A stretch of 64,000 nt of DNA, taken from contig NC_091995.1 in assembly GCF_044704955.1 (NCBI RefSeq), positions 96,720,001 through 96,784,000 of the forward strand, in the 5' to 3' direction. This document shows, one piece after another, positions 10,626 through 47,313 of the stretch (its first letter is position 1; each line of letters opens with the position of its first letter). A program made the position numbers and the translations under genes. The notes below the pieces were generated by a model. The model was not told the origin of the DNA, searched no databases, and saw only the letters and a list, made by a program, of their open reading frames with translations. Origin of the DNA: Pristiophorus japonicus (Eukaryota).

Positions 10626-10634
10626 CAGGAGTTT

Positions 10635-12080: not shown

Positions 12081-12082
12081 TC

Positions 12083-15839: not shown

Positions 15840-16064
15840 CTGTGTGCAGAAGGAAGCTCACATTAACAGGCTCACTAGTATAACCAGGCTCACTAGTATA
15901 ACCAGGCTGACTAGTATAACCATTAAGCAGATTTGGAAAAGGCAGGAATTGGGCCGAGAATTCAGACAAGGCATGGTACGGTGTGCCAGCGTGTGGTCGT
16001 GTTCACTCCCAGTTTGTTCTACGTCGAAGGATCAACAATCGGGACCCGATCTCCACAAGGCAAG

Positions 16065-19000: not shown

Positions 19001-19335
19001 ATATTTTGCATTTCTATTCTTCCTACCAAAGTGGATTTTCCCACATTATACTCCATCTGCCAAATGTTTTCCCACTGACTTAACCTGTCTATATCCCTTT
19101 CCAGATTCTGTGTCCTCCTTGCAACTTGCTTTCCCACCCATCTTTGTATCGTCAGCAAATTTGGCTATATTACACTCGATCCTTTCTTCCAAGTCATTTA
19201 AATAGATTGTAAATAGTTGAGGTCCCAGCACCGATCCCTGTGGCACCCCACTAGTCACTATTTGTCAACCTGAGAATGACCCATTTATCCCGACTCTGTT
19301 AGTTAGCCAATCCTCCATCCATGCCAATATATTAC
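16065..19335. mobile_element. Nested CR1 cluster: minus-strand CR1 interrupted by two plus-strand CR1 3' fragments (~16424-17550, ~17588-18695)
   Basis: RT ORF 16424-17470 (+). Minus-strand pieces 16065-16423, 17551-17587 and 18696-19335 are collinear. Confidence 0.85.
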
Positions 19336-19800
19336 TGAGGTAATACAAGTCATGCAGGGGATTCCTGGGCACAAGACTGGAATCGTTCCGCGCCCATCAC
19401 CTGCTGCAGTTGTTGCAGAGTTTTCAAATCACGACCTGCAACATTGTTCAATGCAGCATTTTGTACAGAATCACAGGCTGAAATCTCACAGGGTCTCGCC
19501 CTTCATAAACAGGGACTCTGCACAACACAAACAGCCTGTGAAACAACGGACATTGAATCAGGGAACTGGATTAACTGCTTAGAGAGGACTGGTTGCTTCA
19601 GAGAGTCAGGTTTAGGTTTAGGTTTAGGTTTCGGTTTAGTGTCCCTCTGGACTCTATCCCGACCGAGTGATGGGATTAAAGTCCCCTCCATCCTCTGGCA
19701 GGGCGTTCAGGCCGCCCCCCTCCCCTCCACCGGCCAGGTCAGGAGGTCCCAGTCCTGGCTCCCTTCAATAGGCCGCAGCCTCTGCTGGATTGCTCCTAAC

Positions 19801-19968
19801 CTCTGCAACTCCACATTTCCGTCAAGCTCGTCCCCGATCTGTCGCAGGCAAACCCCAAGACGCTTTACGTTGGGGTTACACAGTTCATCCTCTTTGCCCC
19901 CGAGCTCGGTGATGGTTAACACTGCTTCAGAACCTTCGGCACCTCGAGTCGTCCGATCTACGATAAAT
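19801..19968 (-). CDS. BAX: BAX exon 3 (BH3): FIVDRTTRGAEGSEAVLTITELGGKEDELCNPNVKRLGVCLRQIGDELDGNVELQR
   Basis: atttcag|A ... AG|gttagg. 168 nt, phase 2-2. CLRQIGDELD BH3 motif. Confidence 0.97.
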
Positions 19969-20658
19969 CTGAAATGTAAAAATCATTACTCTCCCAGAAA
20001 TTCCAACGCAGGAGGAGCCTATTCGGCCCATCAGCTCTCTGCTAGCAGTAAGCTCTTCACTTAACCTCTGCCTATTTCCGCCGTTAGTGCGGCCTCCTGC
20101 TCACTCCCGATTCTCACGGACTCAACTAACACCAATAATTCAACTGTCAGCGGTTCGGTGAAATGGCTCCACATCAACATTCAAACTACATTTTACCACT
20201 TGCAGCTTACGTGTGTATTTATTCTACAAACACTGCCCTCATGTCTGGGCGTCCCACGACCTCTCAAACCAACCACTAACTCGGGTACGTCCTACTCTAC
20301 TCCACTCCTAGAGAACCAGCTGCCCATCGTCTGGTTCCTGACAACAAGGCCGGAGGCTGGGAGTGAATCCTGGGGAACCTTGGGTGTATTCTCACTGCAC
20401 TAACTAGCCTGCCGTGCCAAAGCCACATTCCTAGCTTTGGGAGAGTTCCAGACTGAAGGCGAGGCTCCTGGGATAACGAGAGGAGTCAAACACTTCCCAA
20501 CAACAATGACCTGAAGCAGCCCTCCGAACTATTCAGACCGACTCCCCACTAGGTAAATCGGAGTAGTGGCCAGATTGGCAGCTAAATCACCAGAACTAGA
20601 CTCCAGAGCCCAGACTACTTAGGAGCAAGTATTGAATCAAATTAAAACGGACACGTAC

Positions 20659-20707
20659 CCGCGCAGAAGTGTGGCTCCTGTCTGCATGATCTGCTCACTA
20701 ACTTGAT
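20659..20707 (-). CDS. BAX: BAX exon 2: DQVSEQIMQTGATLLRG
   Basis: cttttag|AT ... GG|gtacgt. 49 nt, phase 1-2. Resembles BAX alpha1 SEQIMKTGALLLQG. Confidence 0.95.
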
Positions 20708-22161
20708 CTAAAAGAGAAGCACAAAGTTAGGGAACAATAATATGACTTAACAAGTGCGAGAGTTGAGCCGAGCTACAGGATTAAGTCATCCTCGACTCCG
20801 AGCGACTGCCTATGATGATGCTGACAGGATCCAATATGGCAACTGTGCCCGTGTACAAAGTGCAGCCTGCAGGCTAATACTGCCTGCCGAGTGGCTCACC
20901 AACTTGTGCATCACCAACTGTGGCAGCACAGTCTCCCTCGGCTCCGGCAGAAACACTAGAAAAAACACCATTGATCTAGAAACCGTTGCAAAAGCTTCTC
21001 AGAACTCAGTTAGATAAGGAATGGACAGTGAGCGGTTGGTCAAATGGTCATAAGGACATGGAGCGGTGCAGGGGACAAGTCGGGAATTTCAGGGCATGGG
21101 GCCTTGACGACAAATCCTATTCCAAATCCACTTCCAGCTACATTTGTGGTGGGGAAGTGGGCAGGAGGATGAGTGTGGTGAGGGAAACAAGGAAGTAATT
21201 GGAAATGTCCTTGCCTGGGGCATAGAGAGGTCACGTGAAATGGCAACTCAAGGGGGTAGCTGAGACTGTGGGTGCTTATACGAAAGGAAAGGGAAAAATA
21301 ACTTACTTTTCTGTACCATCTTTTACCACCCCTTGTCCCAAAGTACTTCACAGCCAATGAAGTAGAGCAGTGTCACTGCTGGGAGTGATGGAGGTTCAGG
21401 GAGGACAATCACCGAGAATGTGGAGTAAAAGTGCAGAAGCTGAGAGAAAAGCAGGGAGGGTATGGACAAGGCGAGATCTTCGATGGGGACTGTACCAGAG
21501 GAGTAGGGTGAGGGAGAAAAGGGAGAGTGTGATTTGGTGATGAAGGCAGGCGTTTAGACGGGGCAGGTGATGGGAGGTAGAGCTAGGCGGGAAAACCAAC
21601 AAGTTACAAGAAATGCCGTTCAAAATTGCCCGCCCAAGATTGGCAGTAAATCATTAATTTCCCCGGACTACGCTGGCATGGAAAGGATTGATGAGTCACT
21701 GCTGGGAATGTGTCCTGTCGCGCTCCGTGTGAAACCTACACTCAGCCCCTCCCTTCAGTGATACTAACAGGGCAGCGCCCAGATTGGGGTAGAGCAGAAT
21801 CAGGCTTGTTACAGAGTCCACAGCACACACACATCGTGCTCCTCATTTAGAAAAAAATATCAAAGCTCTAAAATATTTGCGAAGATAAAACATCAAATTA
21901 CAACTGGACAATCTTAAAAAAAAATTGAGAAAAGAAAGCAAGTCAGCTTTTATTAGTTTGCCTGACCTCGAATTCTGGTCAAGTGATCTCCCACCATTGG
22001 TGGTCGTGCCTTCAGCCATCTAGGCTCGAAGCTCTGGAATTCCCTCCCTAAACCTCACTTCCATTTAAGATATTCTTAAAACCTATCTTTGACCAAGCTT
22101 GACCTGTCCCAGTGTCTCCATCGTTAGCTCGGTGGCAATTTTTGTTTGTGATGTGCGTTTA

Positions 22162-22490
22162 CAGGTTGAATCTCTCTTATCCAGCACTGTGCCAGATAAG
22201 GGATTTTTCCAGACGAGGGGTGGTCACGTTAAATTGGATGGTACAGGTACTGAGCAAGGGGATATTGGGGCTGGCTGGCTTGGGGTTGAGAGTGCGGCAG
22301 AGATATCATGGGGTTGGGGGGGCGCTGTGGATCACGGGGTCAGGCCAACGATTGCGGGAGTCGGAAGCGAGTAAGGACTTCAATTTGTTCATGTCGGGAG
22401 TTCTGTGCATGCGCCACCCGGTGGCCAGGAATGGTTCTGGACGAGGGGTGGTTCCAGATAAGGGAGTTCTGGATAAGGGAGGTTTAACTG
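22162..22490. mobile_element. Tc1/mariner (pogo/Tigger-like) MITE
   Basis: TIRs CAGGTTGAATCTCTCTTATCCAG and CTGGATAAGGGAGGTTTAACTG, each flanked by TA. Confidence 0.75.
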
Positions 22491-23554
22491 TACTATGTTT
22501 ATGGCACTATAGACATATAGGTTGTTAAGACATTGAGATTAGAGGATACAGTGAGCTCCCATGGTAGAACTCACCAATCAGCCTCCAAGTGACTATTCAG
22601 ACCACCTGCCCACTGGGAATGCCAGATAGGGCCAGTTTAGGTGAAACTGCCCCATACTAGCAGCAAGGCCATGGGTCTTCAGCTAGTTTTTGAACAGATG
22701 TCACAAAACAAACCTAACAGAGATTAAATGCAGTTGGAATGTTCTAGTCACACGCCAACAGGAAGAATGTAATTGAGGGAGAGCAGGTTTGTGTTTCCGG
22801 GAATTGCTGGCCTGTTGATCGGAGAGGTGGATGAGCCAGTGTGAACGGTTAGATATGAAACTGACATGACAAGGCCCAGGAAAGGAAATTCCATGCCTCG
22901 GGTGTGTCAATAAAACACTGCGGCATTCATGGCTTTGATCCAGTGTTCTGACAAATCATAGGCCCCCAGGCAGCAAGGTGTGGGTACCTTAAACACGTGC
23001 ACCAGTTAGAAGCTAGAATCAGTGCAGCAATCATCTTTCCGGTGAGAGGTTTAACATCAGTGTAAGATTGTAGAGGAACCTGTCCCAGGACTCTCAACCA
23101 ACACCAGGAAGATATCAATTGATCCATTTGCTGTGTCTGGGGCCTAGCAGTGCAGATTGGTTACACAGGATTCACTGGGTGTGAAGGACTTTGGGACAGA
23201 TGTGAGCAGCTACTACAAAAATTAAAGTTCTTCCTTGAATCTGATCCCATAACTTAGGTACTCACCTACCGGCGGACACACTCAATTAAACACATCCGGA
23301 TACTGATCATTGTAGAATAGGCCAGGAAAGAGAAACGGTCACTCAATGCAATGAATGAGGGGGAAAAAACTGAGCGCAGATAAAACAAGCTGAGATGCAG
23401 AGTGACCAGCACTGGATCAGCTGAACCTCACTCGGACAATATCTGGGGGCAGCCCTGATCCCCATCCAGTGATTGCTGCTGGGACCAGGACCGGGTACAC
23501 TCTGACAATCCGGATCCGGACTGAGACACCGATCGCCACACAGCTGGACAGCAG

Positions 23555-24950
23555 GGGGGGGGGAAAGAGAGGTGTCGTGGGGGAGGGGGAGTGTGGGGGA
23601 GGGAGTGAGGGGGGGGGGGAGAGTGAGGGGGGGGGGGGGGAGTGGGGGGGGGGGGGGAGTGTGGGGGGGGGGGAGTGAGGGAGGGGGAGTGTGGGGGGGG
23701 GGGGAAGTGAGGGGGGGGAGTGAGGGGGGGGCGGGAGAGGCGAGGAGTGAGGGTAGTGAAGGGGAGCGAGGAGGGGCAAGGAGGTGGGGGGGGGGGGGGG
23801 AGTGAGTAGTGAGGGGGCGAGCCCGGGGGGTGGGGAGCCGGGGGCCGGGGAGTGGGGAGCCGGGGCCCGGTGGGTGGGGGGCCCGGGGGGTGGGGGACCG
23901 GGGGGTGGGGAGCCGGGGGGTGGGGGACCGGGGGCCGGGGGGTGGGGAGCCGGGAGCCGGGGCCCGGTGGGTGGGGGGCCCGGGGGTGGGGGACCGGGGG
24001 GTGGGGAGCCGGGAGCCGGGGCCCGGGGGGTGGGGAGCCGGGAGCCGGGGGCCCGGGGGGTGGGGAGCCGGGGCCCGGGGAGTGGGGGCCCGGGGGGTGG
24101 GGAGCCGGGGCCCGGGGGGTGGGGGCCCGGGGAGCCGGGGGGTGGGGAGCCGGGGCCCGGGGGTGGGGAGCCGGGGGGTGGGGGCCCGGGGGGTGGGGGC
24201 CCGGGGAGCCGGGGGGTGGGGAGCCGGGGAGCCGGGGGGTGGGGAGCCGGGGCCCGGGGGTGGGGGCCCGGGGGGTGGGGAGCCGGGGCCCGGGGGGTGG
24301 GGGCCCGGGGAGCCGGGGGTGGGGGCCCGGGGGGTGGGGAGCCGGGGGGTGGGGGCCCGGGGGGTGGGGAGCCGGGGGGTGGGGAGCCGGGGGTGGGGGC
24401 CCGGGGGGTGGGGGCCCGGGGGGTGGGGGCCCGGGGGGTGGGGGCCCGGGGGGTGGGGGTGGGGGCCCGGGGAGCCGGGGGTGGGGGCCCGGGGGGTGGG
24501 GGGCCGCGGATCGGGGGCCGGGGCCCGGGGGGGTGGGGAGCCGGGGCCCGGGGGGTGGGGGCCCGGGGGGTGGGGAGCCGGGGGCCGGGGCCCGGGCGGT
24601 GGGGAGCCGGGGGGTGGGGGACCGGTGAGTGGGGGCCCGGGGCCCGGGGGGTGGGGGGCCGGTGAGTGGGGGCCCGGGGCCCGGGGGGTGGGGACCGGTG
24701 AGTGGGGGCCCGGGGGGGTGGGGGCCCGGGGCCCGGGGGGTGGGGGGCCGCGGATCGGGGGCCGGGGGTGGGGGCACTCCCCCAATCGCGGGTTCTGGGG
24801 CTGAGCCTTACCCAGTGCCAGCAGCCCGGGGCCCGGGGGGTGGGGACCGGTGAGTGGGGGCCCGGGGGGTGGGGGGCCGCGGATCGGGGGCCCGGGGCCC
24901 GGGGGGTGGGGAGCCGGGGGCCGGGGTCGGGGCCCGGGGGTGGGGGCACT
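23555..24950 (+). repeat. G-rich degenerate repeat (GGGGGGTGGGGAGCC/GGGGCCC) at the start of BAX intron 1
   Basis: Dense G runs; source of the spurious 300-600 aa Pro/Gly ORFs. Confidence 0.95.
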
Positions 24951-24983
24951 CCCCCAATCGCGGGTTCTGGGGCTGTGCCTTAC

Positions 24984-25065
24984 CCAGTGCCAGCAGCCCG
25001 GGGCCGCTCCGATTCCTCCGCCGCCTCTGACCCTCGCCGTCCCCGCAGCCGCCGGCCTCCGCCAT
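24984..25065 (-). CDS. BAX: BAX exon 1 coding part: MAEAGGCGDGEGQRRRRNRSGPGLLAL
   Basis: gggATGG start in a CpG island; donor CTGG|gtaagg; 82 nt, phase 1 fits exon 2. Six exons sum to 636 nt (211 aa plus stop). Confidence 0.85.
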
Positions 25066-25379: not shown

Positions 25380-28300
25380 CTGGATTACCTCGAGACTTGA
25401 CCATTCCAACACACTCCTGGCCGGCCTCCCACATTCTACCCTCCGTAAACTCGAGGTGATCCAAAACTCGGCTGACCCGTGTCCTAACTCGCACCCAGTC
25501 CCACTCACCCATCACCCCCTGTGCTCACTGCCCCATGTCCTAACTCACATCCAGTCCCACTCACCCATCACCCCCTGTGCTCACTGCCCCGTGTCCTAAC
25601 TCACACCCAGTCCCACTCACCCATCACCCCCTGTGCTCACTGCCCCGTGTCCTAACTCACACCCAGTCCCACTCACCCATCACCCCCTGTGCTCACTGAC
25701 CCCGTGTCCTAACTCACACCCAGTCCCACTCACCCATCACCCCCTGTGCTCACTGCCCCCGTGACCTAACTCACACCCAGTCCCACTCACCCATCACCCC
25801 CTGTGCTCACTGCCCCGTGTCCTAACTCGCACCCAGTCCCACTCACCCATCACCCCCTGTGCTCACTGTCCCCGTGTCCTAACTCACACCCAGTCCCACT
25901 CACCCATCACCCCCTGTGCTCACTGCCCCGTGTCCTAACTCACACCGAGTCCCACTCACCCATCACCCCCTGTGCCCCATGTCCTAACTCACACCTAGTC
26001 CCACTCACCCATCACCCCCTGTGCTCACTGCCCCATGTCCTAACTCACACCGAGTCCCGCTCACCCATCACCCCCTGTGCTCACTGCCCCATGTCCTAAC
26101 TCACATCCAGTCCCACTCACCCATCACCCCCTGTGCTCACTGCCCCGTGTCCTAACTCACACCCAGTCCCACTCACCCATCACCCCCTGTGCTCACTGCC
26201 CCATGTCCTAACTCACACCCAGTCCCACTCACCCATCACCCCCTGTGCTCACTGACCCCGTGTCCTAACTCACACCCAGTCCCACTCACCCATCACCCCC
26301 TGTGCTCACTGCCCCCGTGACCTAACTCACACCCAGTCCCACTCACCCATCACCCCCTGTGCTCACTGCCCCGTGTCCTAACTCGCACCCAGTCCCACTC
26401 ACCCATCACCCCCTGTGCTCACTGTCCCCGTGTCCTAACTCACACCCAGTCCCACTCACCCATCACCCCCTGTGCTCACTGCCCCGTGTCCTAACTCACA
26501 CCGAGTCCCACTCACCCATCACCCCCTGTGCCCCATGTCCTAACTCACACCTAGTCCCACTCACCCATCACCCCCTGTGCTCACTGCCCCATGTCCTAAC
26601 TCACACCGAGTCCCGCTCACCCATCACCCCCTGTGCTCACTGCCCCATGTCCTAACTCACACCCAGTCCCACTCACCCATCACCCCCTGTGCCCCATGTC
26701 CTAACTCACACCCAGTCCCACTCACCCATCACCCCTGTGCTCACTGCCCCGTGTCCTAACTCACACCCAGTCCCACTCACCCATCACCCACTGTGCTCAC
26801 TGACCCCGTGTCCTAACTCACACCCAGTCCCACTCACCCATCACCCCCTGTGCTCACTGCCCCCGTGTCCTAACTCACACCCAGTCCCACTCACCCATCA
26901 CCCCCTGTGCCCCGTGTCCTAACTCACACCCAGTCCCACTCACCCATCACCCCCTGTGCTCACTGACCCCGTGTCCTAACTCACACCCAGTCCCACTCAC
27001 CCATCACCCCCTGTGCCCCATGTCCTAACTCACACCCAGTCCCACTCACCCATCACCCCCTGTGCTCACTGCCCCCGTGTCCTAACTCGCACCAAGTCCC
27101 ACTCACCCATCACCCACTGTGCTCACTGACCCCGTGTCCTAACTCACACCCAGTCCCACTCACCCATCACCCCCTGTGCTCACTGCCCCCGTGTCCTAAC
27201 TCACACCCAGTCCCACTCACCCATCACCCCCTGTGCCCCATGTCCTAACTCACACCCAGTCCCACTCACCCATCACCCCCTGTGCTCACTGCCCCCGTGT
27301 CCTAACTCGCACCAAGTCCCACTCACCCATCACCCCCTGTGCTCACTGACCCCGTGTCCTAACTCACACCCAGTCCCACTCACCCATCACCCCCTGTGCT
27401 CACTGCCCCGTGTCCTAACTCACACCCAGTCCCACTCACCCATCACCCCCTGTGCTCACTGCCCCGTGTCCTAACTCACACCCAGTCCCACTCACCCATC
27501 ACCCCCTGTGCTCACTGCCCCGTGTCCTAACTCACACCCAGTCCCACTCACCCATCACCCCCTGTGCTCACTGCCCCGTGTCCTAACTCACACCCAGTCC
27601 CACTCACCCATCACCCCCTGTGCTCACTGCCCCGTGTCCTAACTCACACCCAGTCCCACTCACCCATCACCCCCTGTGCTCACTGATCCCGTGTCCTAAC
27701 TCACACCCAGTCCCACTCACCCATCACCCCCTGTGCCCTGTGTCCTAACTCACACCAAGTCCCATTTACCCATCACCCCCTGTGCTCATTGCCCCGTGTC
27801 CTAAATCACACCAAGTCCCATTCACCCATCACCCCCTGTGCTCACTGCCCCGTGTCCTAACTCACACCCAGTCCCACTCACCCATCACCCCCTGTGCTCA
27901 CTGACCACGTGTCCTAACTCGCACCGAGTCCCGCTCACCCATCACTCCCTGTGCTCACTGCCCCATGTCCTAACTCACACCGAGTCCCGCTCACCCATCA
28001 CCCCCTGTGCTCACTGCCCCATGTCCTAACTCACACCCAGTCCCACTCACCCATCACCCCCTGTGCTCACTGACCACGTGTCCTAACTCACACCTAGTCC
28101 CACTCACCCATCACCCCCTGTGCTCACTGCCCCGTGTCCTAACTCACACCCTGTCCCACTCACCCATCTCCCCCTGTGCTCACTGACCCCGTGTCCTAAC
28201 TCACACCCAGTCCCACTCACCCATCACCCCCTGTGCTCGCTGCCCCGTGTCCTAACTCACATCGAGTCCCACTCACCCATCACCCCCTGTGCTCACTGCC

Positions 28301-29680
28301 CCGTGTCCTAACTCGCACCGAGTCCCACTCACCCATCACCCCCTGTGCCCCGTGTCCTAACTCACACCCAGTCCCGCTCACCCATCACCCCCTGTGCTCA
28401 CTGCCCCGTGTCCTAACTCACACCCAGTCCCGCTCACCCATCACCCCCTGTGCTCACTGCCCCGTGTCCTAACTCACACCCAGTCCCGCTCACCCATCAC
28501 CCCCTGTGCTCACTGACCCCGTGTCCTAACTCGCACCGAGTCCCGCTCACCCATCACCCCCTGTGCTCATTGCCCGTGTCCTAACTCTTACCGAGTCCCA
28601 CTCACCCATCACCCCCTGTGCTCGCTGCCCCGTGTCCTAACTCACACCCAGTTCCACTCACCCATCACCCCCTGTGCTCATTGCCCCGTGTCCTAACTCT
28701 CACCGAGTCCCACTCACCCATCACCCCCTGTGCTCGCTGCCCCGTGTCCTAACTCACACCCAGTCCCACTCACCCATCACCCCCTGTGCTCGCTGTCCCC
28801 GTGTCCTAACTCGCACCGAGTCCCGCTCACCCATCACCCCCTGTGCTCATTGCCCCGTGTCCTAACTCTCACCGAGTCCCACTCACCCATCACCCCCTGT
28901 GCTTGCTGCCCCGTGTCCTAACTCACACCCAGTCCCAATCACCCATCACCCCCTGTGCTCATTGCCCCGTGTCCTAACTCACATCCAATCCCACTCACCC
29001 ATCACCCCCTGTGCTCACTGCCCCGTGTCCTAACTCACACCGAGTCCCGTTCACCCATCACCCCCTGTGCTCATTGCCCCGTGTCCTAACTCACACCCAG
29101 TCCCACTCACCCATCACCCCCTGTGCTCACTGCCCCGTGTCCTAACTCACACCGAGTCCCGTTCACCCATCACCCCCTGTGCTCACTGCCCCGTGTCCTA
29201 ACTCACACCCAGTCCCACTCACCCATCATCCCCTGTGCTCACTGATCCCGTGTCCTAACTCACACCGAGTCCCACTCACCCATCACCCCCTGTGCTCACT
29301 GAACTACATTGGTTCCCGGTCTAGCAACGCCTCGATTTCAAAATTCTCATCCTTGTTTACAAATCCCTCCATGGCCCTCGCCCCTCCCTATCTCTGTAAC
29401 CTCCAGCCCCACAACCCCCCCGAGATGTCTGCGCTCCTCTAATTCTGCCCTCCTGACCATCCCTGGTTATAATCGCTCCACCATTGGTGGCCGTGCCTTC
29501 TGTTACCTAGGCCCCAAGCTCTGGAATGCCTCTCTAGCCTCCTTCAAGACATTCCTTAAAAACTACCTCTTTGACCCAGCTTTTGGTCACATCACTTCTA
29601 CTTATGTGGCTTGGTGTCAAATTTTTATCACATAATACTCCTGTGAAGCACCGTGGGACATTGCACTACATTAAAGACGA
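25380..29680 (+). mobile_element. L2-type LINE 3' fragment carrying a ~3.8 kb internal tandem expansion
   Basis: L2-like coding (ITSRLDHSNTLLAGLPHSTLRKLEVIQNSA) precedes the array and L2-like sequence resumes at ~29300 (CTACATTGGTTCCCGG). Confidence 0.75.
25475..29300 (+). repeat. ~56-bp minisatellite (CCCGTGTCCTAACTCACACCCAGTCCCACTCACCCATCACCCCCTGTGCTCACTG)
   Basis: About 70 units, with shorter deletion variants and a 556-bp higher-order duplication (25803 vs 26359). Confidence 0.97.
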
Positions 29681-29689
29681 TAAGTTGTT

Positions 29690-30084
29690 GTTGATCTTGA
29701 GTCCAGAAGGCTGTAAAGTGCCTGATCAGAAGATGAGGTGCTGTTCCTCGAACTTATATTGAGGTTCATTGGAATAGTGTGAGAGGCCAAGGACGTAGAG
29801 GTCAGTGAGGAAGAGACACAGAGAATTAAAGTGACACGCTTGCGGACGGAACCCTGAACGGAGGTGTTCCGCAAAGCAGTCACCCAATCTGCGTTTGGTC
29901 TCCACAATCCAGAGGAGACCACAGCGTGAGCAGCGAATACAGTATACTAAATTGGAAAAAGTCCAAGTGAATCGCTGTGTCACTTGGAAGGGGTGTTTGG
30001 GGCTCTGGACGGTGGGATGGGAGGCAGTAAAAGGGCAGGTGTTACATCTCCTGCGCTCGCACGAGAGGGTCCTGTGGGAGGTGC
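29690..30084 (-). mobile_element. Penelope-like element fragment (GIY-YIG endonuclease), continuing at ~35289-35370 and ~35820-36455
   Basis: NLVYCIRCSRCGLLWIVETKRRLGDCFAEHLRS resembles the Penelope GIY-YIG domain. Split by later CR1 and SINE insertions. Confidence 0.75.
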
Positions 30085-30105
30085 GTCGGAGAGGCAGGAG
30101 TCGGA

Positions 30106-30545
30106 GCGGCAGCGGCCTATAAAAGGCCCAGCAGTTCGGGGACCAGCGAGGTGAGTCGGAGGTCGGAGGTCAGTCGGTGCGGCAGCGGCCTATAAAAGGC
30201 CCAGCAGTTCGGGGACCAGCGAGGTGAGTCGGAGGTCGGAGGTCAGTCGGTGCGGCAGCGGCCTATAAAAGGCCCAGCAGTTCGGGGACCAGCGAGGTGC
30301 GTCGGAGGTCGGAGGTCAGTCGGTGCGGCAGCGGCCTATAAAAGGCCCAGCAGTTCGGGGACCAGCGAGGTGCATCGGAGGTCGGAGGTCAGTCGGTGCG
30401 GCAGCGGCCTATAAAAGGCCCAGCAGTTCGGGGACCAGCGAGGTGCGTCGGAGGTCGGAGGTCAGTCGGTGCGGCAGCGGCCTATAAAAGGCCCAGCAGT
30501 TCGGGGACCAGCGAGGTGTGTCGGAGGTCGGAGGTCAGTCAGTGC
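30106..30545 (+). repeat. 73-bp monomer array in the CR1 5' UTR, each unit with GGCCTATAAAAGGCC
   Basis: TATAAAA at 30118, 30191, 30264, 30337, 30410 and 30483. Confidence 0.95.
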
Positions 30546-30728
30546 AGCTGCGGCAGGGAGGCAAAAAAGAAGTAAAAAGAAATCGAAAGGTGACGTCACA
30601 GCCAAGGGGGTAAGTGATTGGCTGGTGATTGGTGAGTAGTTTTTCTTTTTCTTTTCTTTATCAGTAAGTAACCTTTAGCATTATTGTTACCAAATTAATT
30701 TAATCTAAGGGTAGGAGAGCTCAGACAC

Positions 30729-35820: not shown

Positions 35821-37194
35821 TTGCTGAGGACTGATCGTTTGGGGTCAGAGAGGAGAAGTCAGAGGGGATAGTGAAAACACGGCAGGGGGTGAGATTGCAA
35901 GAAGGGATGGGGTCAGAGGGCAGTGAACTGGAAGAAGGTTCCGGAGGAGCATTGGTGTCCAAGAGTTGTTGAAGCTTGCGATCCTTGACCCCTGAAAGAA
36001 GATAAAAGTTTTTTGTTGAAGTGCCGGATGAAGCGAAGGATGAAATGAAACTGTGACAGCTCGGAGATAGAGTGAGTTGGTGCTGCTGAAGGGAGAGGTG
36101 GAGAGGTGGCACATTGTGTTGATTGGAGCCCAGGATGTGGTGGTTCGAGGAACGCTAATATCTCGGAGATATCTGCAATCCTGGGTGGATCCAAAACATC
36201 AAGGGTGCACTTCCAGTTGAAATCCATGTGGAATAGATCGAAATTGTTGCTGAGGAACTGTCATTTAATCTCTCCGGCCTTGCACCCTATCACAGACCTT
36301 CCCGTTTGTTCTTTACCCGCCTCCGCACTTGTCACATCTCTAACTTTTTCTAATTCTAATGAAAGAGCATCGAGCTGAAACGTTAAGTCTCTCTCTCTCT
36401 CTCCACAGATGCTGCCTGACCCGCTGAGTGTTTCCAGCACTTTGTGTTTTTATTTACTTGATTTCAGTTGGCTGAATGCAGTTTCAGTCTCGGGCATTAA
36501 ACTGGTGCTGCCCCTCAGGAAAAAAAGTTCACATTTGTTTTTATAATCACTTCCTGCATGTTAAAACTTGTGAAATAATTAACAGGAAGTGTGAGCTGCA
36601 TACATCTGAACTGTGACCGCATCTCAAACAAAAGTACTTGATTGGTGGAGAGGGGCTTTGGGACGTCCTGAGAATGTGCAAGGTGCGAGATAAATAAACA
36701 TCTTTGTTTCGTTCTACTTGTTCCAGACCAGATAACCTGGCTCTGGTGCTGTTGTCTGTAAGGTGCAGGGCAGGGGCACTCTGAGCAGAGGCTGAATAGC
36801 TTGTCGAGCACGGCCTGCAGAGTCTGGGACAGTCTAACGGAGTCAGTGCAGGAGTCACTGTGTACTGAAGCCAAGATGGCAATGGAGACTGCAGGAACTC
36901 AGCAGGGATTGGGTAAGATTAATGTTCTTTGTTGTGTGTTTATATATCGTCTTATCACATCACAGAAACATTTCAGGAAAATCTACTCAATGTGAAGCAG
37001 GCTTATGACTCTGTTCACATCGCAGACAGAGAAAATCTTAGCAAGCATGCTACAGAACATTTTGAAAGCGCAATGACTGATATAATGTGGAGAAACGTGG
37101 CACAGTAAGATCTCACAGACAGGGGTGAGCTGTTAACCTGTAATAGGCCCGGCGGAAATAGAAAACCAGGGACAAGAAAAGCAACGTGTGACAG

Positions 37195-37620
37195 TAAAGT
37201 GTTGATATCAGCTTGGCTCAGTGGTAACATTCTCGCCTCCAAGTCAGAAGGTGGGTTCAATGTATGCGGACACTTCAGTGCAGTACTGAGGGAGTGTTGC
37301 ACTGTCGAAGGACCCTCATCCGTTAAACTGTGTCTGTCTGTTCAGGTGGATGTAAACAATCCAACAATTCAAAGGGGAGCAGGGGAGTTGCTCCACTCTC
37401 CTGGTGTCCTGTCCATCTCAAAACCAACAGATTTACTGCTCATTTACCTTGGCGCTGTTTATAGGAGCTTTCTGTGTGCAATTTGGCTGCTGCCTTTCCT
37501 ATGTGACGCAACCTATATTTATCTAGTGCCTTAAACATTAAAACAATCTCAAAGCTGCATTTCAAAGCAATTCATTGTGTGTGAAGCACTTTGGGTCGGT
37601 CTGAAGACATGGAACAAACG
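37195..37620 (+). mobile_element. Degenerate tRNA-derived SINE
   Basis: TGGCTCAGTGGTA box A and GGGTTCAA box B; body similar to the other SINE copies. Confidence 0.65.
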
Positions 37621-38743
37621 ATATATAACTGGGCAAGTTGTTGCTTTCTAAAGTTTTGAGGGAACCAGGCAATATTGAGGTACAAAGAGGGTGTGACAAA
37701 GTAAAAGAAAAAATAACTTCATCAGAGAATAGAAACTGAAAGTATGGGTAAACAACTTGAAACGCCACAAGAGAGCGAATTAAAATGAATCCTGGAATGC
37801 CCACTTGGTCAGTCAGCGGCTGAAAGGGAAAAGCCAGATTCATGTTTTGAGCATTTTCTGATTTGGGTCATTTTGATGTCAGTACCTGAAATAACCAACT
37901 TGTCTTCAGTTGGTGCTGTTTCTGGTGACTGCTGCCCTTGTATTTTATATACACCCCGTCCCCCCACCTTCTCAGGCCACCCACCGATGGGCAATAAATG
38001 TTGCCGTGCCAACACCACATCCATAGAACAAATTTTAAAAACCTTCAAGCGCTCGGCCAGTAAAATGTAAGTGAAATGTGCAATCTTTTCTTGATGAACT
38101 TTCCAGGCACTATATCTCACTGCAGATGGTAGGGGACAGGTCCAGATTTCAGTGGCATCCGTCACCCCCCGAAGTAGCTCTGACATTCTGGTGTTAACTC
38201 ACACCGCCCAATATCTGCTCATGTAATAATGTAACCCAAGGGGGTAAGTCTGTCCCCTCAACATGCAACCTCCATACTAACCCCGCACTCGCCCCTTGGA
38301 GGCTTCTCCAACCTTGGGTCGCAACTGATGAACATTCTGGTCAGTCAAGGTCGCTGAGCTGGTTTATTTACAGAATACAGTTTAACCGGAATCTATCAAT
38401 GTCCCTTTGCAACTTTCTGCTCCCATCAACAGTAATGAGCTGCCTAACTTAGTGTTGTCAGCAAACTTGGATAGATGTCTCTCTATTCGTCATTGATAAA
38501 TATAACAAAAAGCTGATGCCCCAGTACAGATCCTTGGGTGACCCACTCGGTGGGTGGAGGAGCAAAAGAGTTTGAGTTTGAGCAGAATGAGAACAGGAGC
38601 AGCAGAGTGAGTGAGCTGCATAAACCTGACAATTGGGAAGGAGGGGGGTGGAAGGGTGTAAGTCAAAGATACAAAAGCAGATAACTGCCGATGCTGGAAT
38701 CAGGAATAAAAACAGAAAATGCTGGAAATCTCAGCAGCTCAGG

Positions 38744-41700
38744 TATAAAGTCCTTACACAATACCACAAACCCACACGAGGCACATTCTATGGACAAGGT
38801 CACTCCATGACCTGAACCTTTATTCACAGGACCAAGAAGTGATGACCCTGTGTGGGACCTCCCTTTATATACCTGGATGACCAGGTGAGGAGTGTCTCCC
38901 ACAAGTTCACCCCCTGTGGTCAAGATGTGCATTTCTTACATATATACAGTATTGCAGTGTTGTAACATAAAGGTTACATACATGACATCACCTCCCATCT
39001 CCTCCCCCCCCCCCCCAAGATCTTATTGGGATCATAGGTTAAGTCTCTCGGGTGGTCTACGCTCCCTTGTGGAGCGCTGCAGTTGGGGCTCTGGTTGTTG
39101 AGCCTTGGCCTGTGTCTCTGTCCCCTGTGGTGATTCCGGCCTGTCCGGACTGACCGCAGGGACTGTACATGCTGCTGAATGTTCTTGTTGCTCGTTCACT
39201 GGCAGTGGTGTGAATACCGTCTCATGATCTTCCTCAGGTTCCTCAGTGTCCATGCTGAATCTTTTTTTTACTTGGTCCAGATGCTTGCGGCATATCTGCT
39301 CATTGTTAAGTTTAACCACTATGACCCTGTTCCCCTCTTTGTCTATTACAGTACCCTCAAGCCATTTGGGCCCCACGGCGTGATTGAGAACAAATACGGG
39401 GTCATCAATTTCTATACATCTCCCCCTTGAATTTCGGTCATGGTACTCGTTTTGGGACTGGCACTTGCCCTGGTGGGCCAGGGCCACGGGCTGAGCGGGG
39501 CCTCCCTGGGGGCATTACCCAGCTGGGCACACGTCGTGCACCTGCGAACACAATGTTCCAGGTCTGAATCAATTCCCGGCCACCACACATGTGACCGGGC
39601 AATGGCCTTCATCAGCACGATGCCTGGGTGCTCGCTGTGGAGTTCCCCTCCCTGCCCCTCTGGGGCATGACTACCCGGCTGCCCCATAGTAGGCAGTCGG
39701 CTTGGGTGGAGAGCTCATCCAACCGTCTGTGGAACGGTCTGACCTCCTCAGCACAAGCTCCGTGTGCGGGCACCCAATCCCCAGTCAGGACACATTTCTT
39801 AATCAAGGCTAGGGGGGGGGATCTCTGTTGGTCCAGATTTTGATCTGGCGGGCTGTGATGGGGGAGCCTGCGCTGTCAAAGGCATCGACAGCCATGACCA
39901 TCTCAGTGCTTTGCTCCCAGAAATGAACGCAACTCCGATGTGTTGCAGGGCCTGGGCGCTCGTCGAATCGCCTGTTTTGGATTCGGTGGGCCGAATCCCG
40001 CCTGTAGCAACCCTCCTGCCCAGAAACTCAACCTCAGGAGCTAAGAACAAACATTTAGACTTCTTGAGTCACAGGCCTACCCGGTTTAGTCGGCGTAGCA
40101 CCTCCTCCAGGTTGTGGAGGTGTTCCTCGGTGTCCCGACCCATGATGAGGATGTCGTCCTGGAATACGATCGTTCCAGGAATGGATTTGAGCAGGCTTTC
40201 CATGTTTCTTTGAAAAATCGTGGCCGCTGATCGATGCCAAACGGGCACCTGTTATAAACGAACAGTCCCTTGTGTGTGGTGATGGTGGTCAGTTGTTTAG
40301 ACTCATCGGCCAGTTCTTGGGTCATTTAGGCTGAAGTGAGGTCCAACCTGGTGAACAGCTTGCCGCCTGCCAGCGTGGTGAAAAGATCCTCCGCTCTCGG
40401 GAGCGGGTATTGGTCTTGTAGGGACACCCAATTGATGGTGGCCTTGTAGTCGCCACAGATCCTGACCGAGCCATCTGCTTTTAGGACGGGAATGATGGGG
40501 CTCGCCCAGTCGCTGAATTCAACGGGCGAGATGATGCCCTCTCTCAGCAACCGGTCCAATTCGCTCTCGATCTTTTCCCGCATCACATACGGCACAGCTC
40601 TGGGTTTGTGGTGCACTGGTCTGGCGTCCGGGGTGATGCGTATCACTACTTTGGTATCTTTGAACGTCCCGACGCCAGGCTGAAATAGTGGTTCAAATTG
40701 CTGTACGATATGTGAGCATGAACTTCGCTCCACAGATGTCATGATGTGCACATCCCTCCATTTCAGTTCATCTCAGCTAACCAGTTCCTCCCCAACAGTG
40801 CGGGACCATTGCCCGGGACAATCCAGAGCGGCAGCCAGTTCACCGATCCATTGTGTGTGACCGCCAACATTGCACTGCCTAGCACCGGAATGATTTCTTT
40901 GGTATACGTCCGTAATTGCGTCTCAATGCGTTCTAGTTTGGGTCTGCTGGCTTTGAGTGGCCACAGCTTTTCGAATTGTTGAACACTCATGAGTGACTGG
41001 CTGGCCCCCATGTCCAGCTCCATGTGTACAGGGATGCCGTTTAATAAGACTTTCATCATCATGGGTGGCGTTTTGGTATATGAGCTGTAAATGTTTGCCA
41101 CATGAACCCGCTGAACTTCAGCATCCATTGATTTGCCCCAAGCGTCATCCTGCTTCGCAAACACCTCATCTGGTCCATCCGCCTCGTATATTAGCCTGGT
41201 TACAGGCTTTCTGCACATTCTGGCTAAATGGCCAGTGAGGTTACAATTTCTGCAGACGAATTGTTGAAACCTGCAAGTCCTGGCAGCATGTCTGCCCCCA
41301 CACCTCCAGCATGAGCTGAGATTCCCATTGTTGTGAACAAAAGAGCTGTTACAAGGCATTCCTCGCTGATTGTCCCTTTGACTGCTCTTGAGCACCCTGT
41401 TAGTGGGTGTCAATGGCCCCGTCCTGAGCCGCATTGTCCACTGGGGGGACGTAAATGTCCGTTCAGCCTGCCATTGTCTGTGTTGGAAACTTACTCTGGG
41501 GTCTATTGCTGCCTGGGGTGTGTCGAACTGCCCTTGCCTACCTGCGGGGCTCTGTGTCGCGTTTATGATATTGACTCCCTGATCCATCGCCACGTTGGAG
41601 GTAGAATTGCTCGCATATATTATCTTGGTTTCCTCCTCCCCCGCCATAAAAGTCTGAGCCATCAACGCCGCCGCTTCCAAGGTCAAGTCCTTGGTCTCAA

Positions 41701-42424
41701 TTAGCTTTCTGAAAATCCCAGCTTGACCGAGGCCCTCGATAAAGAAATCCCTTAGCATCTCGCCCCTGCAGGCGTCTGTGACCTTAGAGGCTGGCCAAGC
41801 GCCGGAGGTCTGCAACGAAGTCCGGTATGCTCTGTCCTTCCCGACGTCGGTGTGTATAGAATCGGTGTCGGGCCATGTGTACGCTGCTCGCCGGTTTGAG
41901 GTGCTCACCGATTAGTTTGCTGAGCTCTTCAAAGGTTTTGTCTGCCGGCTTCTCGGGTGCTAGCAGGTCTTTCATGAGCGCGTAAGTGTTAGGTCCACAG
42001 CTGGTCAGTAGATGGGCCCTTCGCTTGTTGGCCTCTGCATCTCCCAGCCAGTCCTTCGTGACAAAACTCTGCTGGAGCCTCTCAATGAAATTGTCCCAGT
42101 CCTCACCAACACAGTACCGTTCTTCTGTGCTACCGGTGGCCATTCTCGTGGGTCGTTGATTCCCGTTTCTCGTCGCCAATGTAATGTCCTTGCTCAATGG
42201 CACAAAACCCACACGAGACACATTCTATGGACAAGGTCACTCCATGACCTGAACCTTTATTCACAGGACCAAGAAGTGATGACCCTGCGTGGGACCTCCC
42301 TTTATATACCTGGATGACCAGGTGAGGAGTGTCTCCCACAAGTTCACCCCCTGTGGTCAAGATGTGCATTTCTTACATATATACAGTATTGCAGTGTTGT
42401 TACATAAAGGTTACATACATGACA
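38744..42424 (-). mobile_element. Gypsy/Ty3 LTR retrotransposon, internally deleted, in intron 1 of the BAX paralogue
   Basis: LTRs 38744-38987 and 42180-42424; TSD TCAGG (38739-38743, 42425-42429); PBS-like TGGCGACGAG; polypurine tract at ~38988-39015; gag with two CCHC knuckles, protease LDMGAS, RT (WASPIIPV, RICGDYK), integrase zinc-finger remnant. Confidence 0.95.
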
Positions 42425-43654
42425 TCAGGCAGTGTCTGTGGAGAGAAAGCAGAGATGATGGGAAGTTGATTGAGGAGGAGGGTTGGGCAGGACGTTATAT
42501 GGAGTTGTTCAATGGCAGAGGTTTGTGAAGATGGAAGTGGTTTCATCATCATAGGCAGTCCCTCAGATTCGAGGATGACTTGGGGCGGCTTATGGTTGGA
42601 CTGACTTGTGCTCACACTGGAAGCTGTTGGTATTACTGACTGATTCCTTTGTTTTCTCTGTTGCAGATAATTGTAACCAGACTCTCCAGCAGATTGCCAA
42701 GATTCTGCTGTGGGGGTAGGTCACATCTGCATCTTGAAACTCGCCTCACAAGCCACTCATTACAACAACAATATCCTCGAGATTTACTAGCATGGTGCCA
42801 GGGTGAAGTACTTAAGTTACAGGGAGAGACTGGGATTGCTCTCCTTAGAACAGAAAAGGTTAAGAGGAGGTTTGAGAAGTGTGAATAATGAGAAAGTGTT
42901 TCCAGTGGCGAGAGGGTCCGAAGCCGACAGATTTAAGGTGCAAAGGAACCAGAGGGGAGATAAGGTAAAAAAATGACACACCGAGTTGTTGTGATCAGGA
43001 ACGCGCTGCCTGAAAGGGCGGTGGAAGCAGATTCAGTGGTAACTTTCAAAAGGGAATTGGATAAATATTTGAAAAAGGAGAATTTGCCGGGCTGTGGGAA
43101 TAGAGCAGGGGAGTGGGACTAACAGGCACGGTGGTCTTCTTCTGTGCCTCAGTCATTTCCCAATTCCCAATAGCCTTCATTGGACCCACCAATGTTTGAC
43201 CCGAAAGACCATTGTCTGGGTGTCTCTGGCTAATGCCGGCAGCCATGACTCAGGATTCCAGCAGAGGGCAAGCCATGAGCTGCTGCCACTCACACCATTG
43301 CATGTTCAACCAGGGCTCCCAGTATCTGGCCAGGGGTTCAATAAGCGTAGCCAGGGATCTCACCCTTGGGAGAGGTATCGTGAAGCAGGAATTGTCTCTG
43401 GACCATGAAATAGCCTGACTGACTGTCAGTGAGCCTCGACCTCATTAACTGACTCGGCTTTAAAGAAACCTGAAATTTATCTTCGCTATCGATACTGACT
43501 GCGAGGACTGACCACTCCCTGACCATATTGTTCCAGATTTATGCAGCAGAATCCTGGCTCTAATCCGGAGCAACAGGACCCGAGGATAAGAAGCCTGAGT
43601 CTGTGTTTGACCAAGGATCACTGAGCAGATCATAAATGATGAGGAACTTAACAG

Positions 43655-44935
43655 GTCAGTCGGTCAGTTTCCCCAGACACCGGTCAGTTTTCCAGATCCC
43701 CAGTTTCCCCAGACCCTGGTCAGTTTCCCCAGACCCCGGTCAGTTTCCCCAGATCCTGGTCAGTTTCCCAAGACCCTGGTCTGTTTCCCCGGGACCCCGG
43801 TCAGTTTCCTCAGGACCCCGGTCAATTTCTCAGATCCCCGGTCAGTTTCCCCGGACCCCGGTCAGTTTTCCAGACCCCCAGTTTCCCCAGACCCTGGTCA
43901 GTTTCCCCAGACCCCGGTCAGTTTCCCCAGACCCTGGTCAGTTTCCCCAGACCCTGGTCAGTTTCCCCGTGACCCTGGGTCAGTTTCCCCAGGATCCCGT
44001 CTGTTTCTGCAGACCCCCGGTCAGTTTCCCAGACCCACGGTCAGTTTCATCGGGACCCCGGTCAGTTTCCCCAGACCCCGGTCAATTTCACCAGGACCCT
44101 GGTCAGTTTCTCAGACCCCGGTCAGTTTCCCCAGACCCTGGTAAGTTTCCCAGTACCCCGGTAACTTTCCCCAGACCACTGGTCATTTTCCCAGACCCAT
44201 GGTCAGTTTCCCCAGATCCCGGTCAGTTTCTCAGACCCCGGTCAGTTTCCCAGACACCCAGTCAGTTTCCCCAGGACCCACAGTGAGTTTCCGCAGGATC
44301 CATGGTCAGTTTCCCCAAGACCCTGGTCAGTTTCTCAGACCCTGGTCAGTTTCCCAGGACCCCGGTCAGTTTCCCAGGACCCCGGTCAGTTTCCCAGACA
44401 CCCGGTCAGTTTCCCCAAGACCCTGGTCAGTTTCTCAGACCCTGGTCAGTTTCCCAGGACCCCAGTCAGTTTCCCCAGATTCCGGTCAGTTTCCTCAGGA
44501 CCCAAAGTCAGTTTCCTCAGGACCACGGTCAGTATCCCCAGACCCTGGGCAGTTTCTCAGACCCCGGTCAGTTTTCCCGGGACCCTGGTCAGTTTCCCCA
44601 GGACCCACAGTCAGTTTCTCTAGGACACCAGTCAGTTTCTCCAGGACTCCGGTCAGTTTCCCCAGACCCTGGTCAGTTTTCACGGAACCCGGTCAGTTTC
44701 TCAGACCCCCATCAGTTTTCCCAGACCCTGGTCAGTTTCTCAGGCCCCCATCAGTTTCCCCAGACCCCGGTCAGTTTTCCAAGACCCTGGTCAGTTTCCC
44801 AGATCCACGGTCAGTTTTGCCAGACCCCGGTCAGTTTTCCAAGACCCTGGTCAGTTTCCCAGATCCACAGTCAGTTTTGCCAGACCCCGGTCAGTTTCCT
44901 CAGATCCCGGTCCATTTTTCCAGACCCCGGTCAGT
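43655..44935 (+). repeat. Degenerate ~21-22 bp minisatellite (CCCCGGTCAGTTTCCCCAGA) filling paralogue intron 3
   Basis: About 55-60 units, starting at the exon 3 donor. Confidence 0.93.
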
Positions 44936-45637
44936 CTCTCCAGCCCCTATTTGGGTTATTTGTGCCTCCAACACTCCGGGGTTTTGTCGACACTCTGGCC
45001 ATTCTCTCACTGCAGCGGTTTCCATCGGAATATCACTGTTTACAACTTGCTGCTTTCTCCAGGTGCATCGGTGAGATTTCTCACGTGAAACCTTTCTCCA
45101 ATTGGCGTGGGAGCTGATTTCTGACGGAAACATTAACTGGCACCGAGTCGTAATGCTGTTTATCCTTGCCTCTTCCATATTCCAGAAGGTCAGTGTGTTT
45201 CCTGCTCTCTGTCCTGTCCAGCCGGAGCTCCTCGCCTCTCGCCTCTCGCCTCCCCCGCAGACTCGGGCTCTCTCCTGATTCCTGCCCAAGCGCCAGTTTC
45301 TGCACCTTCTGCCTCTCTCAGTATTACTGTAGTCACGGCCTCTCTTGGTCATTCTAAGTATAGACTGTTCTGTAAGATGTGTGTGAGGGGGGTGCATTTG
45401 TTACCCTCAGTCTAAGGGCTGTGTTTCCTGGTTTTGCAGTCTCCCAAGGAGTGTATTCTCCAGATTGTAATCCGTTGGACTCTGGACTTCCTCTGTGAAC
45501 GTTTTCTGCTGTGGATTCGAGACCAGGGCAGTTGGGTGAGTGTGCAAACCATCCTCTGCTCAGTGACCTTTTTAGTTACACAGGTCAGCCTGGCTCTGTG
45601 CTGCATGTACTGAGGAGGGGAGGGGCTCAAAGGGAAA

Positions 45638-46110
45638 ATTAGGGGACTAGAGGGATGGGCTTCGATAAGAGAGTTAGGGGACTGGAGGGATGGGCTTCGA
45701 TGGGAGAGTTAGGGGACTGGAGGGATGGGCGAGTTAGGGGACTGGAGGGATGGGCGAGTTAGGGGACTGGAGGGATGGGCTTCAATGGGAGAGTTAGGGG
45801 ACTGGAGGGATGGGCGAGTTAGGGGACTGGAGGGATGGGCGAGTTAGGGGACTGGAGGGATGGGCGAGTTAGGGGACTGGAGGGATGGGCGAGTTAGGGG
45901 ACTGGAGGGATGGGCGAGTTAGGGGACTGGAGGGATGGGCGAGTTAGGGGACTGGAGGGATGGGCTTCAATGGGAGAGTTAGGGGACTGGAGAGATGTGC
46001 TTCGATGGGAGAGTTAGGGGATTGGAGGGATGGGCTTCGATGGGAGAGTTAGGGGACTGGAGGGATGGGCTTTGATGAGAGTTAGAGGACTAGAGGGAGG
46101 GGCTTTGATG
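45638..46110 (+). repeat. 24/35-bp minisatellite (GGGAGAGTTAGGGGACTGGAGGGATGGGCTTCGAT) in paralogue intron 5
   Basis: Reverse complement of the 11340-12080 unit. Confidence 0.95.
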
Positions 46111-46941
46111 GGGTGAATTACCTTGTGTGTCTCTATTACTGTGATTGAATCAGTTGGTTTAATCATTCCTGTCTCCCCATCTTTCTGTCCTACAGGAAAG
46201 CCTTCCAGTTTTACAGAGAGAAATCAGCTCCCGTGTTTCCTTAGCCACCGGAAGCACTGTGGCCTTCATTGCTCTGGGGGCCCTCACTGCATTCATTGTG
46301 GTGCAATATAAAATATGAAAACATCAGTCAGAGTGAACACAGCAGGCAATGAAGAGGGTGTCACATACAGTGAGGGATATACCCAGTGGAACATTATCAT
46401 GGATTTGTTGTTTTTTAGAATATTTGCTTTACTATCGTATAATCATCAATAATGGATTTATAATCGTGTGTAAGAATTAAATATAAAAGTCTGTAATCAT
46501 CCACAGTAAGCAATGGTAACCTGAATTATGTTCAACATTTAACCTTTTTCTTATGCTTAAAAGTCTGTGTAAGCTGCAACCAGACAGTGTGGGATCTACC
46601 TGGGCTAAGACAGAGGTTGCCATGAGCGAACAGACTAGTTAGCCTGGGAACCAAGGTTAGGTGCAGATACCATTGTGCTGGAATGTTATAACATCCGCAG
46701 TGAATTCTCAAAACAATGGCCAACAGCTGGGGCCGTATCTCAGCCGAGGAGACATATTCCTCTCGTGTTGACATAACTGCCCAGACCTGAATCTTGATGG
46801 TCAAAAATAGACAATGCAAGAGTGTCATCAGACCAAAACCTGTGCGGGCCAGGTATCAATATGTATTATGATTGAATTTGGGTGTCAGCCAGTGATTGGT
46901 TCAGCCACAAATTGTAGAAGATTTCAGGAGGAATCAGAGAC

Positions 46942-47075
46942 ACGCCCGGGAGATGAGGAGAGGCGCCCGGGAGATGAGGACAGGCGCCCGGGAGATGAGG
47001 ACAGGCGCCCGGGAGATGAGGACAGGCGCCCGGGAGATGAGGAGAGGCGCCCGGGAGATGAGGAGAGGCGCAGGG
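46942..47075 (+). repeat. 21-bp minisatellite (GCGCCCGGGAGATGAGGACAG)
   Basis: Six tandem copies. Confidence 0.9.
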
Positions 47076-47313
47076 AGCAGCTTCTAGCCAGAGTATGAGG
47101 TCTCAATTACACGCAGTAAACTGTTGCTCGAACACTGTCATGTATTAAGTTTTGCTTGTGCTGAATAAAATTAAATCATTGTCCCCAATATGGGTCAACC
47201 TTGAATTATTTGGAACCAAGGGAACTATGGGGTCTTACAGTCGTGTGGGATATACCCGGGGGGAGAAGAGTGGTTATACCGGGGCGTGAGGGATATACAC
47301 TAACAGGCGTGTG

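Follow-up and report, generated by a model that had tools for sequence, protein, structure and literature searches.

Introduction

Multidomain proteins belonging to the Bcl-2 family share a gene plan in which an intron follows the conserved tryptophan of Bcl-2 homology region 2 (BH2) and the tail anchor is encoded on the last exon (parts of PMC8998228), and in solved complexes the Asp of BH3 pairs with the Arg of BH1 (parts of PMC7022251). Sections of PMC8998228 further describe the glycine of the BH1 signature NWGR as the floor of the groove, without which a functional groove is considered improbable. Bcl-wav of the zebrafish is a divergent multidomain member of the family restricted to aquatic anamniotes (parts of PMC3995731). 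The literature that we covered, which took in portions of PMC8998228 and PMC8282340 and left supplements and most subscription journals outside its reach, contained no description of a BAX duplicate in chondrichthyans. The present study concerns 64,000 nt of Pristiophorus japonicus contig NC_091995.1 (hereafter the window, within which all positions are numbered), in which a six-exon, strongly diverged second copy of BAX, hereafter the candidate, lies near BAX on the opposite strand. We lean, with some reserve, towards the reading that the candidate is an inverted BAX duplicate carrying two frameshifts, which originated early in the cartilaginous fishes, was long constrained, and died recently in this lineage.

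Exon structure and identity of the candidate

On the plus strand, the coding part of exon 1 (36876-36912) comprises 37 nt from the ATG and ends in phase 1, with phase and donor context as in BAX exon 1, and exon 2 (42667-42715; 49 nt, the length of BAX exon 2) encodes the helix-1/BH4 region. Exon 3 (43537-43654; 118 nt) carries the BH3 region, with ITE versus IGD in BAX, and exon 4 (45063-45188; 126 nt) the BH1 region, with NWHR versus NWGR. Exon 5 (45440-45535; 96 nt) covers the BH2 region and ends in phase 0 with the conserved BH2 tryptophan as its last residue, and the coding part of exon 6 (46196-46318; 123 nt including the stop) encodes a hydrophobic tail anchor; polyadenylation hexamers, as motif matches only, follow on the same strand at 46476, 47164, and 47170 (46476-47175). 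All five introns run gt...ag (10 of 10 splice sites GT-AG), and exons 1, 2, 5, and 6 are open. Read through its breaks, the candidate yields 182 residues with introns positioned as in BAX. A preliminary description of this DNA had reported six plus-strand exons of BAX architecture, and that account stands in its five gt...ag introns, its matching intron positions, and its 49-nt exon 2. It had also given exon 1 as ending in Leu-Gly before gtaag in phase 1; the phase holds, as does the donor, which is preceded by an identical four-letter pattern in both genes, and in the candidate and BAX alike, intron 1 interrupts a codon for Asp rather than Gly.

The joined exons were significantly Bcl-2-like, as had been anticipated. 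BLAST aligned the read-through candidate to the window BAX at 34% identity over 154 columns (E 2e-28), and the Smith-Waterman score was 232, compared with 31 ± 5 (maximum 56) for 1000 shuffles; both comparisons were run with exon 2 one base off, in a part outside the BLAST alignment, and the exon has since been corrected. Among single exons scanned against Pfam, the exon 4 piece (E 1.5e-6) and exon 5 (E 4.3e-4) matched Bcl-2, both below the curated cut-off, and neither exon 6 nor the piece of exon 3 gave a Bcl-2 match on its own. Exons 4-6, taken as a 115-aa protein (P0001), matched PF00452 Bcl-2 with 50.9 bits relative to a curated cut-off of 31.4, and a genome-wide Bcl-2 search likewise retrieved exons 4 and 5. 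The candidate follows the gene plan of the family, exon 5 ending at the BH2 Trp and exon 6 being hydrophobic, and it belongs to the BAX subfamily by descent, as judged from its place within the BAX clade in trees, its best matches to BAX, and its six-exon plan. A genome search with exon 3 gave one match of one, hence no further copy and no second haplotype.

Disabling lesions

The first lesion is one extra base in exon 3, midway through BH3 at 43613-43616, leading to the stop TGA at 43622-43624 and a 57-residue product; the second is a loss of phase in exon 4 near 45076-45080 (45072-45080), which by itself leads to the stop TGA at 45115-45117. The candidate has no open reading frame through BH3, BH1, BH2, and tail, as a working BAX-type pore former would need. 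A duplicated (unprocessed) pseudogene keeps the introns of its parent and has disabling lesions fixed in the species; the candidate, with its retained introns and two lesions, the first of them known from the assembly only, is probably one. Translation of a six-exon transcript would end after 57 codons, with three junctions still downstream, and the transcript would probably be subject to nonsense-mediated decay; the candidate likely makes no full-length protein.

Two ways around the lesions were considered and rejected. Compensation of one frameshift by the other would restore the length, but it fails because the stretch from the first to the second contains five stops. Splice rescue was sought with three acceptors near exon 4, ten near exon 3, and nine exon combinations, none of which keeps BH3 plus the tail; a single combination, joining exon 1 to an acceptor at 45076 without exons 2 and 3, reaches the true C-terminus.

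The second lesion could be compared with sequencing data. Seven runs from two studies were listed for 45000-45620, and four were compared over 44960-45630; no source of RNA was among those listed, and X7 contributed no sequence to the interval. Run X4, possibly the source of the assembly, is identical to the window throughout that interval. Contigs of X5 (sample S2; 44966-45126) and X6 (sample S3; 44968-45177), both from the study other than that of X4, span the lesion at depths of 4.5 and 6.3, respectively, with no other letters and no gaps, so that the lesion is present in all three samples covering its site, although S2 and S3 may come from a single individual. Because identical letters recur in X5 and X6 of a second study, the second lesion is in the animal and is no assembly error. 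A share of 0.28 in X5 was also considered as spliced exons 4-5 and rejected, as the contigs of X5 and X6 are unspliced, of depth 4-6, and without joints; no spliced read was seen, and these data have no bearing on expression.

These data also bear on the proposal that the gene is intact in the species and that the assembly contains base errors or a null allele. Each lesion is a small indel next to a short single-letter run, the exon 3 lesion comes from the assembly only, and contigs show the presence of a sequence and not the absence of another; on the other side, the second lesion alone stops the frame and is unchanged in X4, X5, and X6, and two lesions on one haplotype better fit a fixed or old null. 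We regard an intact gene as improbable, slightly more so than the short protein considered next.

The annotated 115-aa model

The preliminary description had called the gene hidden, and here it was mistaken: the 3' half is already a named UniRef entry, annotated in truncated form. UniRef100_UPI00398EC734 (P0001; "apoptosis regulator BAX-like", 115 aa, Pristiophorus japonicus) is 100% identical to the 3' half of the candidate and is the one protein that exon 4 retrieves as a query. We rebuilt the model from an ATG at 43639, the acceptor at 45076, and exons 5-6. Its start (43639-43654, plus strand) lies in a third frame of exon 3, not in BAX's frame, and a stronger AG precedes its acceptor by 13 nt (14 pyrimidines of 18, versus 10 for the acceptor). 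In its predicted fold, the first three helices of the bundle are absent and the last helix comprises residues 94-114; the predicted local distance difference test score (pLDDT) is 78, with five models spanning 59-78, and the predicted template modelling score (pTM) is 0.54.

The locus might be alive as a short, BH3-less, tail-anchored protein, either this model or a 122-aa form joining exon 1 to 45076, that acts as a BAX decoy or membrane partner. Such a protein would account for the UniRef entry and its reproducible construction, for exons 4-6 being open, and for the passing of the Pfam cut-off. We nevertheless think it improbable, given the weaker acceptor, a start that lies in a non-BAX frame behind an upstream stop, and a fold that lacks helices 1-3; open 3' exons are in any case expected after a recent death, and the UniRef cluster has one member. 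The entry is better explained, in our view, as a gene model stepping round the lesions, and the annotation would be corrected accordingly: what is entered as a 115-aa "BAX-like" protein likely represents the tail end of a six-exon gene that is broken.

Past constraint and time of death

Identity to BAX over 156 aligned codons was 0.49 at the first, 0.68 at the second, and 0.40 at the third codon position, compared with 0.63 at each position in a neutral simulation in which BAX was randomly mutated to the same protein identity (1000 runs). Replaced residues had a mean BLOSUM score of 0.01, versus -0.80 ± 0.17 in the simulation (best of 1000: -0.33), a comparison that the alignment biases upward and that in this respect counts against us. 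In-frame stops numbered zero, relative to a simulated mean of 5.0, with zero reached in 0.9% of the 1000 runs. Nonsynonymous divergence (dN) from BAX is about 0.61-0.68, and synonymous divergence (dS) is at least 1.2 and saturated. On the grounds of codon-position identity, conservative replacements, and the lack of in-frame stops, most of the divergence of the candidate is read from these alignments as having arisen under coding constraint, and the copy would have been so constrained for most of its history.

The nonsense targets, 20 splice bases, and ATG add up to 46-50 site-equivalents that have not been hit, which sets a 95% upper limit of about 0.06 substitutions per site. The death of the gene is thus placed at less than about 0.06 neutral substitutions per site, and is taken to be recent. 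The preliminary description had proposed an old inverted duplicate that was functional and distinct and was recently inactivated; its age, constraint, and recent death are supported, and it may have been a distinct functional member of the family.

Motifs and the last working form

The signature motifs of the candidate are altered in all three regions: ITE for IGD in BH3, NWHR for NWGR in BH1, and GSW for GGW in BH2. Thr-Glu stands in place of the BH3 Gly-Asp, and His in place of the BH1 glycine, a position held by Gly in at least 90% of 34 aligned relatives, among which both this glycine and the Asp of BH3 hardly vary. The BH3 and BH1 signature codons differ from those of BAX at all three codon positions; since these are too many substitutions for the interval since death, the changes are likely to date from a time when the frame was still open. 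Pore formation by BAX begins with BH3-in-groove dimers. By analogy with known structures, the last living form of the candidate was likely no canonical killer. The last working protein would have been a tail-anchored BAX fold, already without the BH3 Gly-Asp and the BH1 glycine and probably unable to make the BH3-in-groove contacts of pore formation, and the copy may then have become dispensable beside BAX before it died in this lineage.

Relatives and age of the duplication

The preliminary description had anticipated intact orthologues in other cartilaginous fishes. Four protein searches returned no close shark or ray orthologue, although members hidden within clusters and unannotated genes would have been missed. 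Word-based searches found only the candidate's own entry (one of two and one of ten candidates), a word-free search returned 93 hits from 1.84 billion representatives, the best after that entry being mammalian BAX at 67 bits, and a search of the ESM Atlas gave Bcl-2 clusters only; the best sequence matches in the PDB were BAX (E 2e-18). Among the 93 hits, a BAX-like protein of Callorhinchus milii has the helix-5 motif VMLFI in common with the candidate. The full form of this protein (P0116; 210 aa) is 43% identical to the window BAX, is predicted to fold as BAX (pLDDT 82, top PDB hits BAX), and retains IGD and NWGR. Used as a query in the P. japonicus genome, it found no locus better than BAX and the candidate's family.

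Trees placed the candidate inside the BAX clade, including a quick tree of 48 rows. In a more careful tree of 22 rows, chosen to favour full-length named vertebrate sequences and omitting isoforms and most invertebrates, the candidate paired with P0116 (96/94), and the pair was sister to the window BAX plus Pristis BAX-like (87/93). With six long-branched BAX-like decoys added, the pair persisted (91/86) and the four chondrichthyan rows held together (94/95). Eight residues, in helices 1 and 5 and following BH3, are exclusive to the candidate and P0116, compared with 0-5 for each of the other 13 BAX rows (one for the window BAX, none for Pristis). On its own, P0116 has a branch of 1.16, versus about 0.35 for elasmobranch BAX. 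We consider it probable, from these sequences, that the candidate and the Callorhinchus protein are orthologous, the latter being an intact copy with both motifs kept. The inverted copy of BAX would then likely have arisen in early cartilaginous fishes. The anticipation of an intact orthologue thus finds a plausible counterpart in Callorhinchus and none among the elasmobranch proteins searched; in the phylogeny, the place in the BAX clade holds, and the pairing with Callorhinchus is borderline by the approximately unbiased (AU) test.

Several observations weigh against our reading. The branch of the candidate is very long (1.95-2.55) and drew a warning from the tree program on its placement. 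AU p values were 0.050 for the candidate with the window BAX, 0.050 for the candidate with the window BAX and Pristis, and 0.074 for Callorhinchus with the two elasmobranch BAX proteins. Latimeria has five exclusive residues with the candidate, so that eight is little above background; no canonical second Callorhinchus BAX occurred among 116 hits, and P0116 may be that species' BAX. The failure of the protein searches to return a close shark or ray orthologue belongs here as well, as do the exon 3 lesion, known from the assembly, the dropping of rare variants by contigs, by which an intact allele may have escaped, and the reliance of the functional meaning of the motif changes on known structures.

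Much of this would be explained equally by a younger duplicate. The same dead gene may have arisen within the elasmobranchs or this shark lineage, with the Callorhinchus protein being simply chimaera BAX and the pairing a product of long branches or convergence. To the AU values of 0.050-0.074, the lack of another Callorhinchus BAX, and the lack of shark or ray orthologues may be added that, when P0116 is left out, the candidate takes no settled place within the BAX clade and the window BAX is its nearest row by path. However, the pairing survives the six decoys, the exclusive residues favour P0116 over the window BAX and Pristis, and the saturation of synonymous sites relative to BAX makes the split old in any case; a younger duplicate is, to our mind, unlikely, though it is the most serious of the rivals. 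A further alternative, that the candidate belongs to another fish BAX-like lineage (Bcl-wav or the zgc:153993 type) or is a neutral duplicate that died long ago, would draw on a divergence from BAX as large as theirs. We find it very improbable, with trees that contain no Bcl-wav sequence: the P. japonicus gene of zgc:153993 type is on a different contig (G000:C14), forcing the candidate into that lineage costs 10.3 log units (AU p 0.048), the best matches are BAX, and neutral decay is rejected by the simulation.

A bolder version of the early-duplicate reading is less likely than not. Here, a second BAX would have stood beside BAX since before the chimaera-shark split, acting as a killer in the elephant shark and as a motif-less, non-killing, tail-anchored regulator in a shark lineage, and would have been switched off recently in P. 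japonicus, with living copies in related sharks.

Neighbouring BAX and surroundings

BAX itself (7708-25065, minus strand) is intact, encodes 211 aa in six coding exons, and is the parent or sister copy of the candidate. Its exons lie at 25065-24984 (82 nt), 20707-20659 (49 nt), 19968-19801 (168 nt), 15839-15704 (136 nt), 9223-9119 (105 nt), and 7803-7708 (96 nt), with cumulative intron phases of 1, 2, 2, 0, and 0, and it is 76% identical to Pristis BAX-like. The end of exon 1 and its donor are duplicated once, about 170 bp into intron 1, within a C-rich repeat (24000-24990). The head-to-head arrangement given in the preliminary description is right in that the two starts face apart, yet the start codons are separated by 11.8 kb. 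A shared two-way promoter was rejected on account of that distance and of the satellite and long interspersed nuclear element (LINE)-like DNA in between. There is a CpG island at the BAX start (CpG ratio 1.03) and none at the candidate (0.34). Directly upstream of the island are a 56-bp satellite (69 copies; 25472-29301) and a 73-bp repeat (30078-30554), every unit of which includes a TATA-like word.

Intron 1 of the candidate contains a 3.7-kb long terminal repeat (LTR) retroelement (38744-42424, minus strand, antisense to the gene) flanked by a 5-bp target-site duplication. Its LTR pair is 96.3% alike (8 mismatches and 1 gap in 246 columns), and for this reason we take the insertion to be of similar age to the death of the candidate; there is no sign that it caused the loss. 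The element has matches to a zinc knuckle and an aspartyl protease, a gag/protease-like reading being split over several frames, and two of the three frames scanned had no Pfam match. Intron 3 is filled by a 20-bp tandem repeat of 64 copies (43661-44947, plus strand). Beyond the candidate, and converging on it, are 3' exons of an SLC6-family transporter (52550-55668, minus strand; Pfam SNF on both scanned exons). In the human genome, an SLC6 gene presumably also lies near BAX.

Elsewhere in the genome, we noted a BAK-like copy with an altered BH1 (L012, on G000:C15) together with two Bcl-2-like copies that are broken and lie on the minus strand of G000:C2 (L011 and L020), all probably further pseudogenes. 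An identical BID-like exon occurs at L021 on a chromosome-sized contig (G000:C17) and at L022 on a small contig (G000:C2972), likely as an assembly duplicate.

Comparison with known systems

Lineage-specific BAX-like duplicates are common, occurring for instance in mammals, crocodiles, and teleosts, and as a pattern they are unsurprising; what the candidate adds is the loss of a gene at an estimated date. Should the link to Callorhinchus hold, there would be three BAX-type genes in cartilaginous fishes, and the series from an intact chimaera copy through a motif-dead shark copy to a pseudogene would be a natural experiment on the residues that the BAX fold needs to kill.

A third gene of BAX type in P. 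japonicus is zgc:153993-like (G000:C14; L014, L017, L026-L028), its exons 3-6 being open, with few pyrimidines before its exon 4 acceptor and with exons 1-2 only glimpsed. The zgc:153993-type paralogue (Scyliorhinus XP_038664333.1, Latimeria, hagfish) is a further BAX-type gene that fishes have besides BAX, built on the exon plan of the candidate; it differs in forming a separate clade on a separate contig, in having exons 3-6 open, and in keeping IGD and NWGR. Relative to Bcl-wav, the candidate nests in the BAX clade, in trees that contain no Bcl-wav sequence. UniRef100_UPI00398EC734 agrees with the 3' half of the locus letter for letter and lacks exons 1-2 as well as the greater part of exon 3; by its non-BAX start frame and second acceptor it avoids the lesions, and the gene is not shown as broken. 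The Callorhinchus BAX-like protein (XP_042201031.1 / XP_007909032.1; P0116, P0011) is the sister of the candidate in the tree at 35% identity and, unlike the candidate, is intact at 210 aa and keeps IGD and NWGR. With vertebrate BAX (1f16, 5w62, 5w63) the candidate shares its six coding exons, intron positions, 49-nt exon 2, BH1 and BH2 regions, and tail anchor, and it differs from BAX in its identity of 34-36%, its short helix 1-2 loop, its ITE, NWHR, and GSW motifs, and its two frameshifts.

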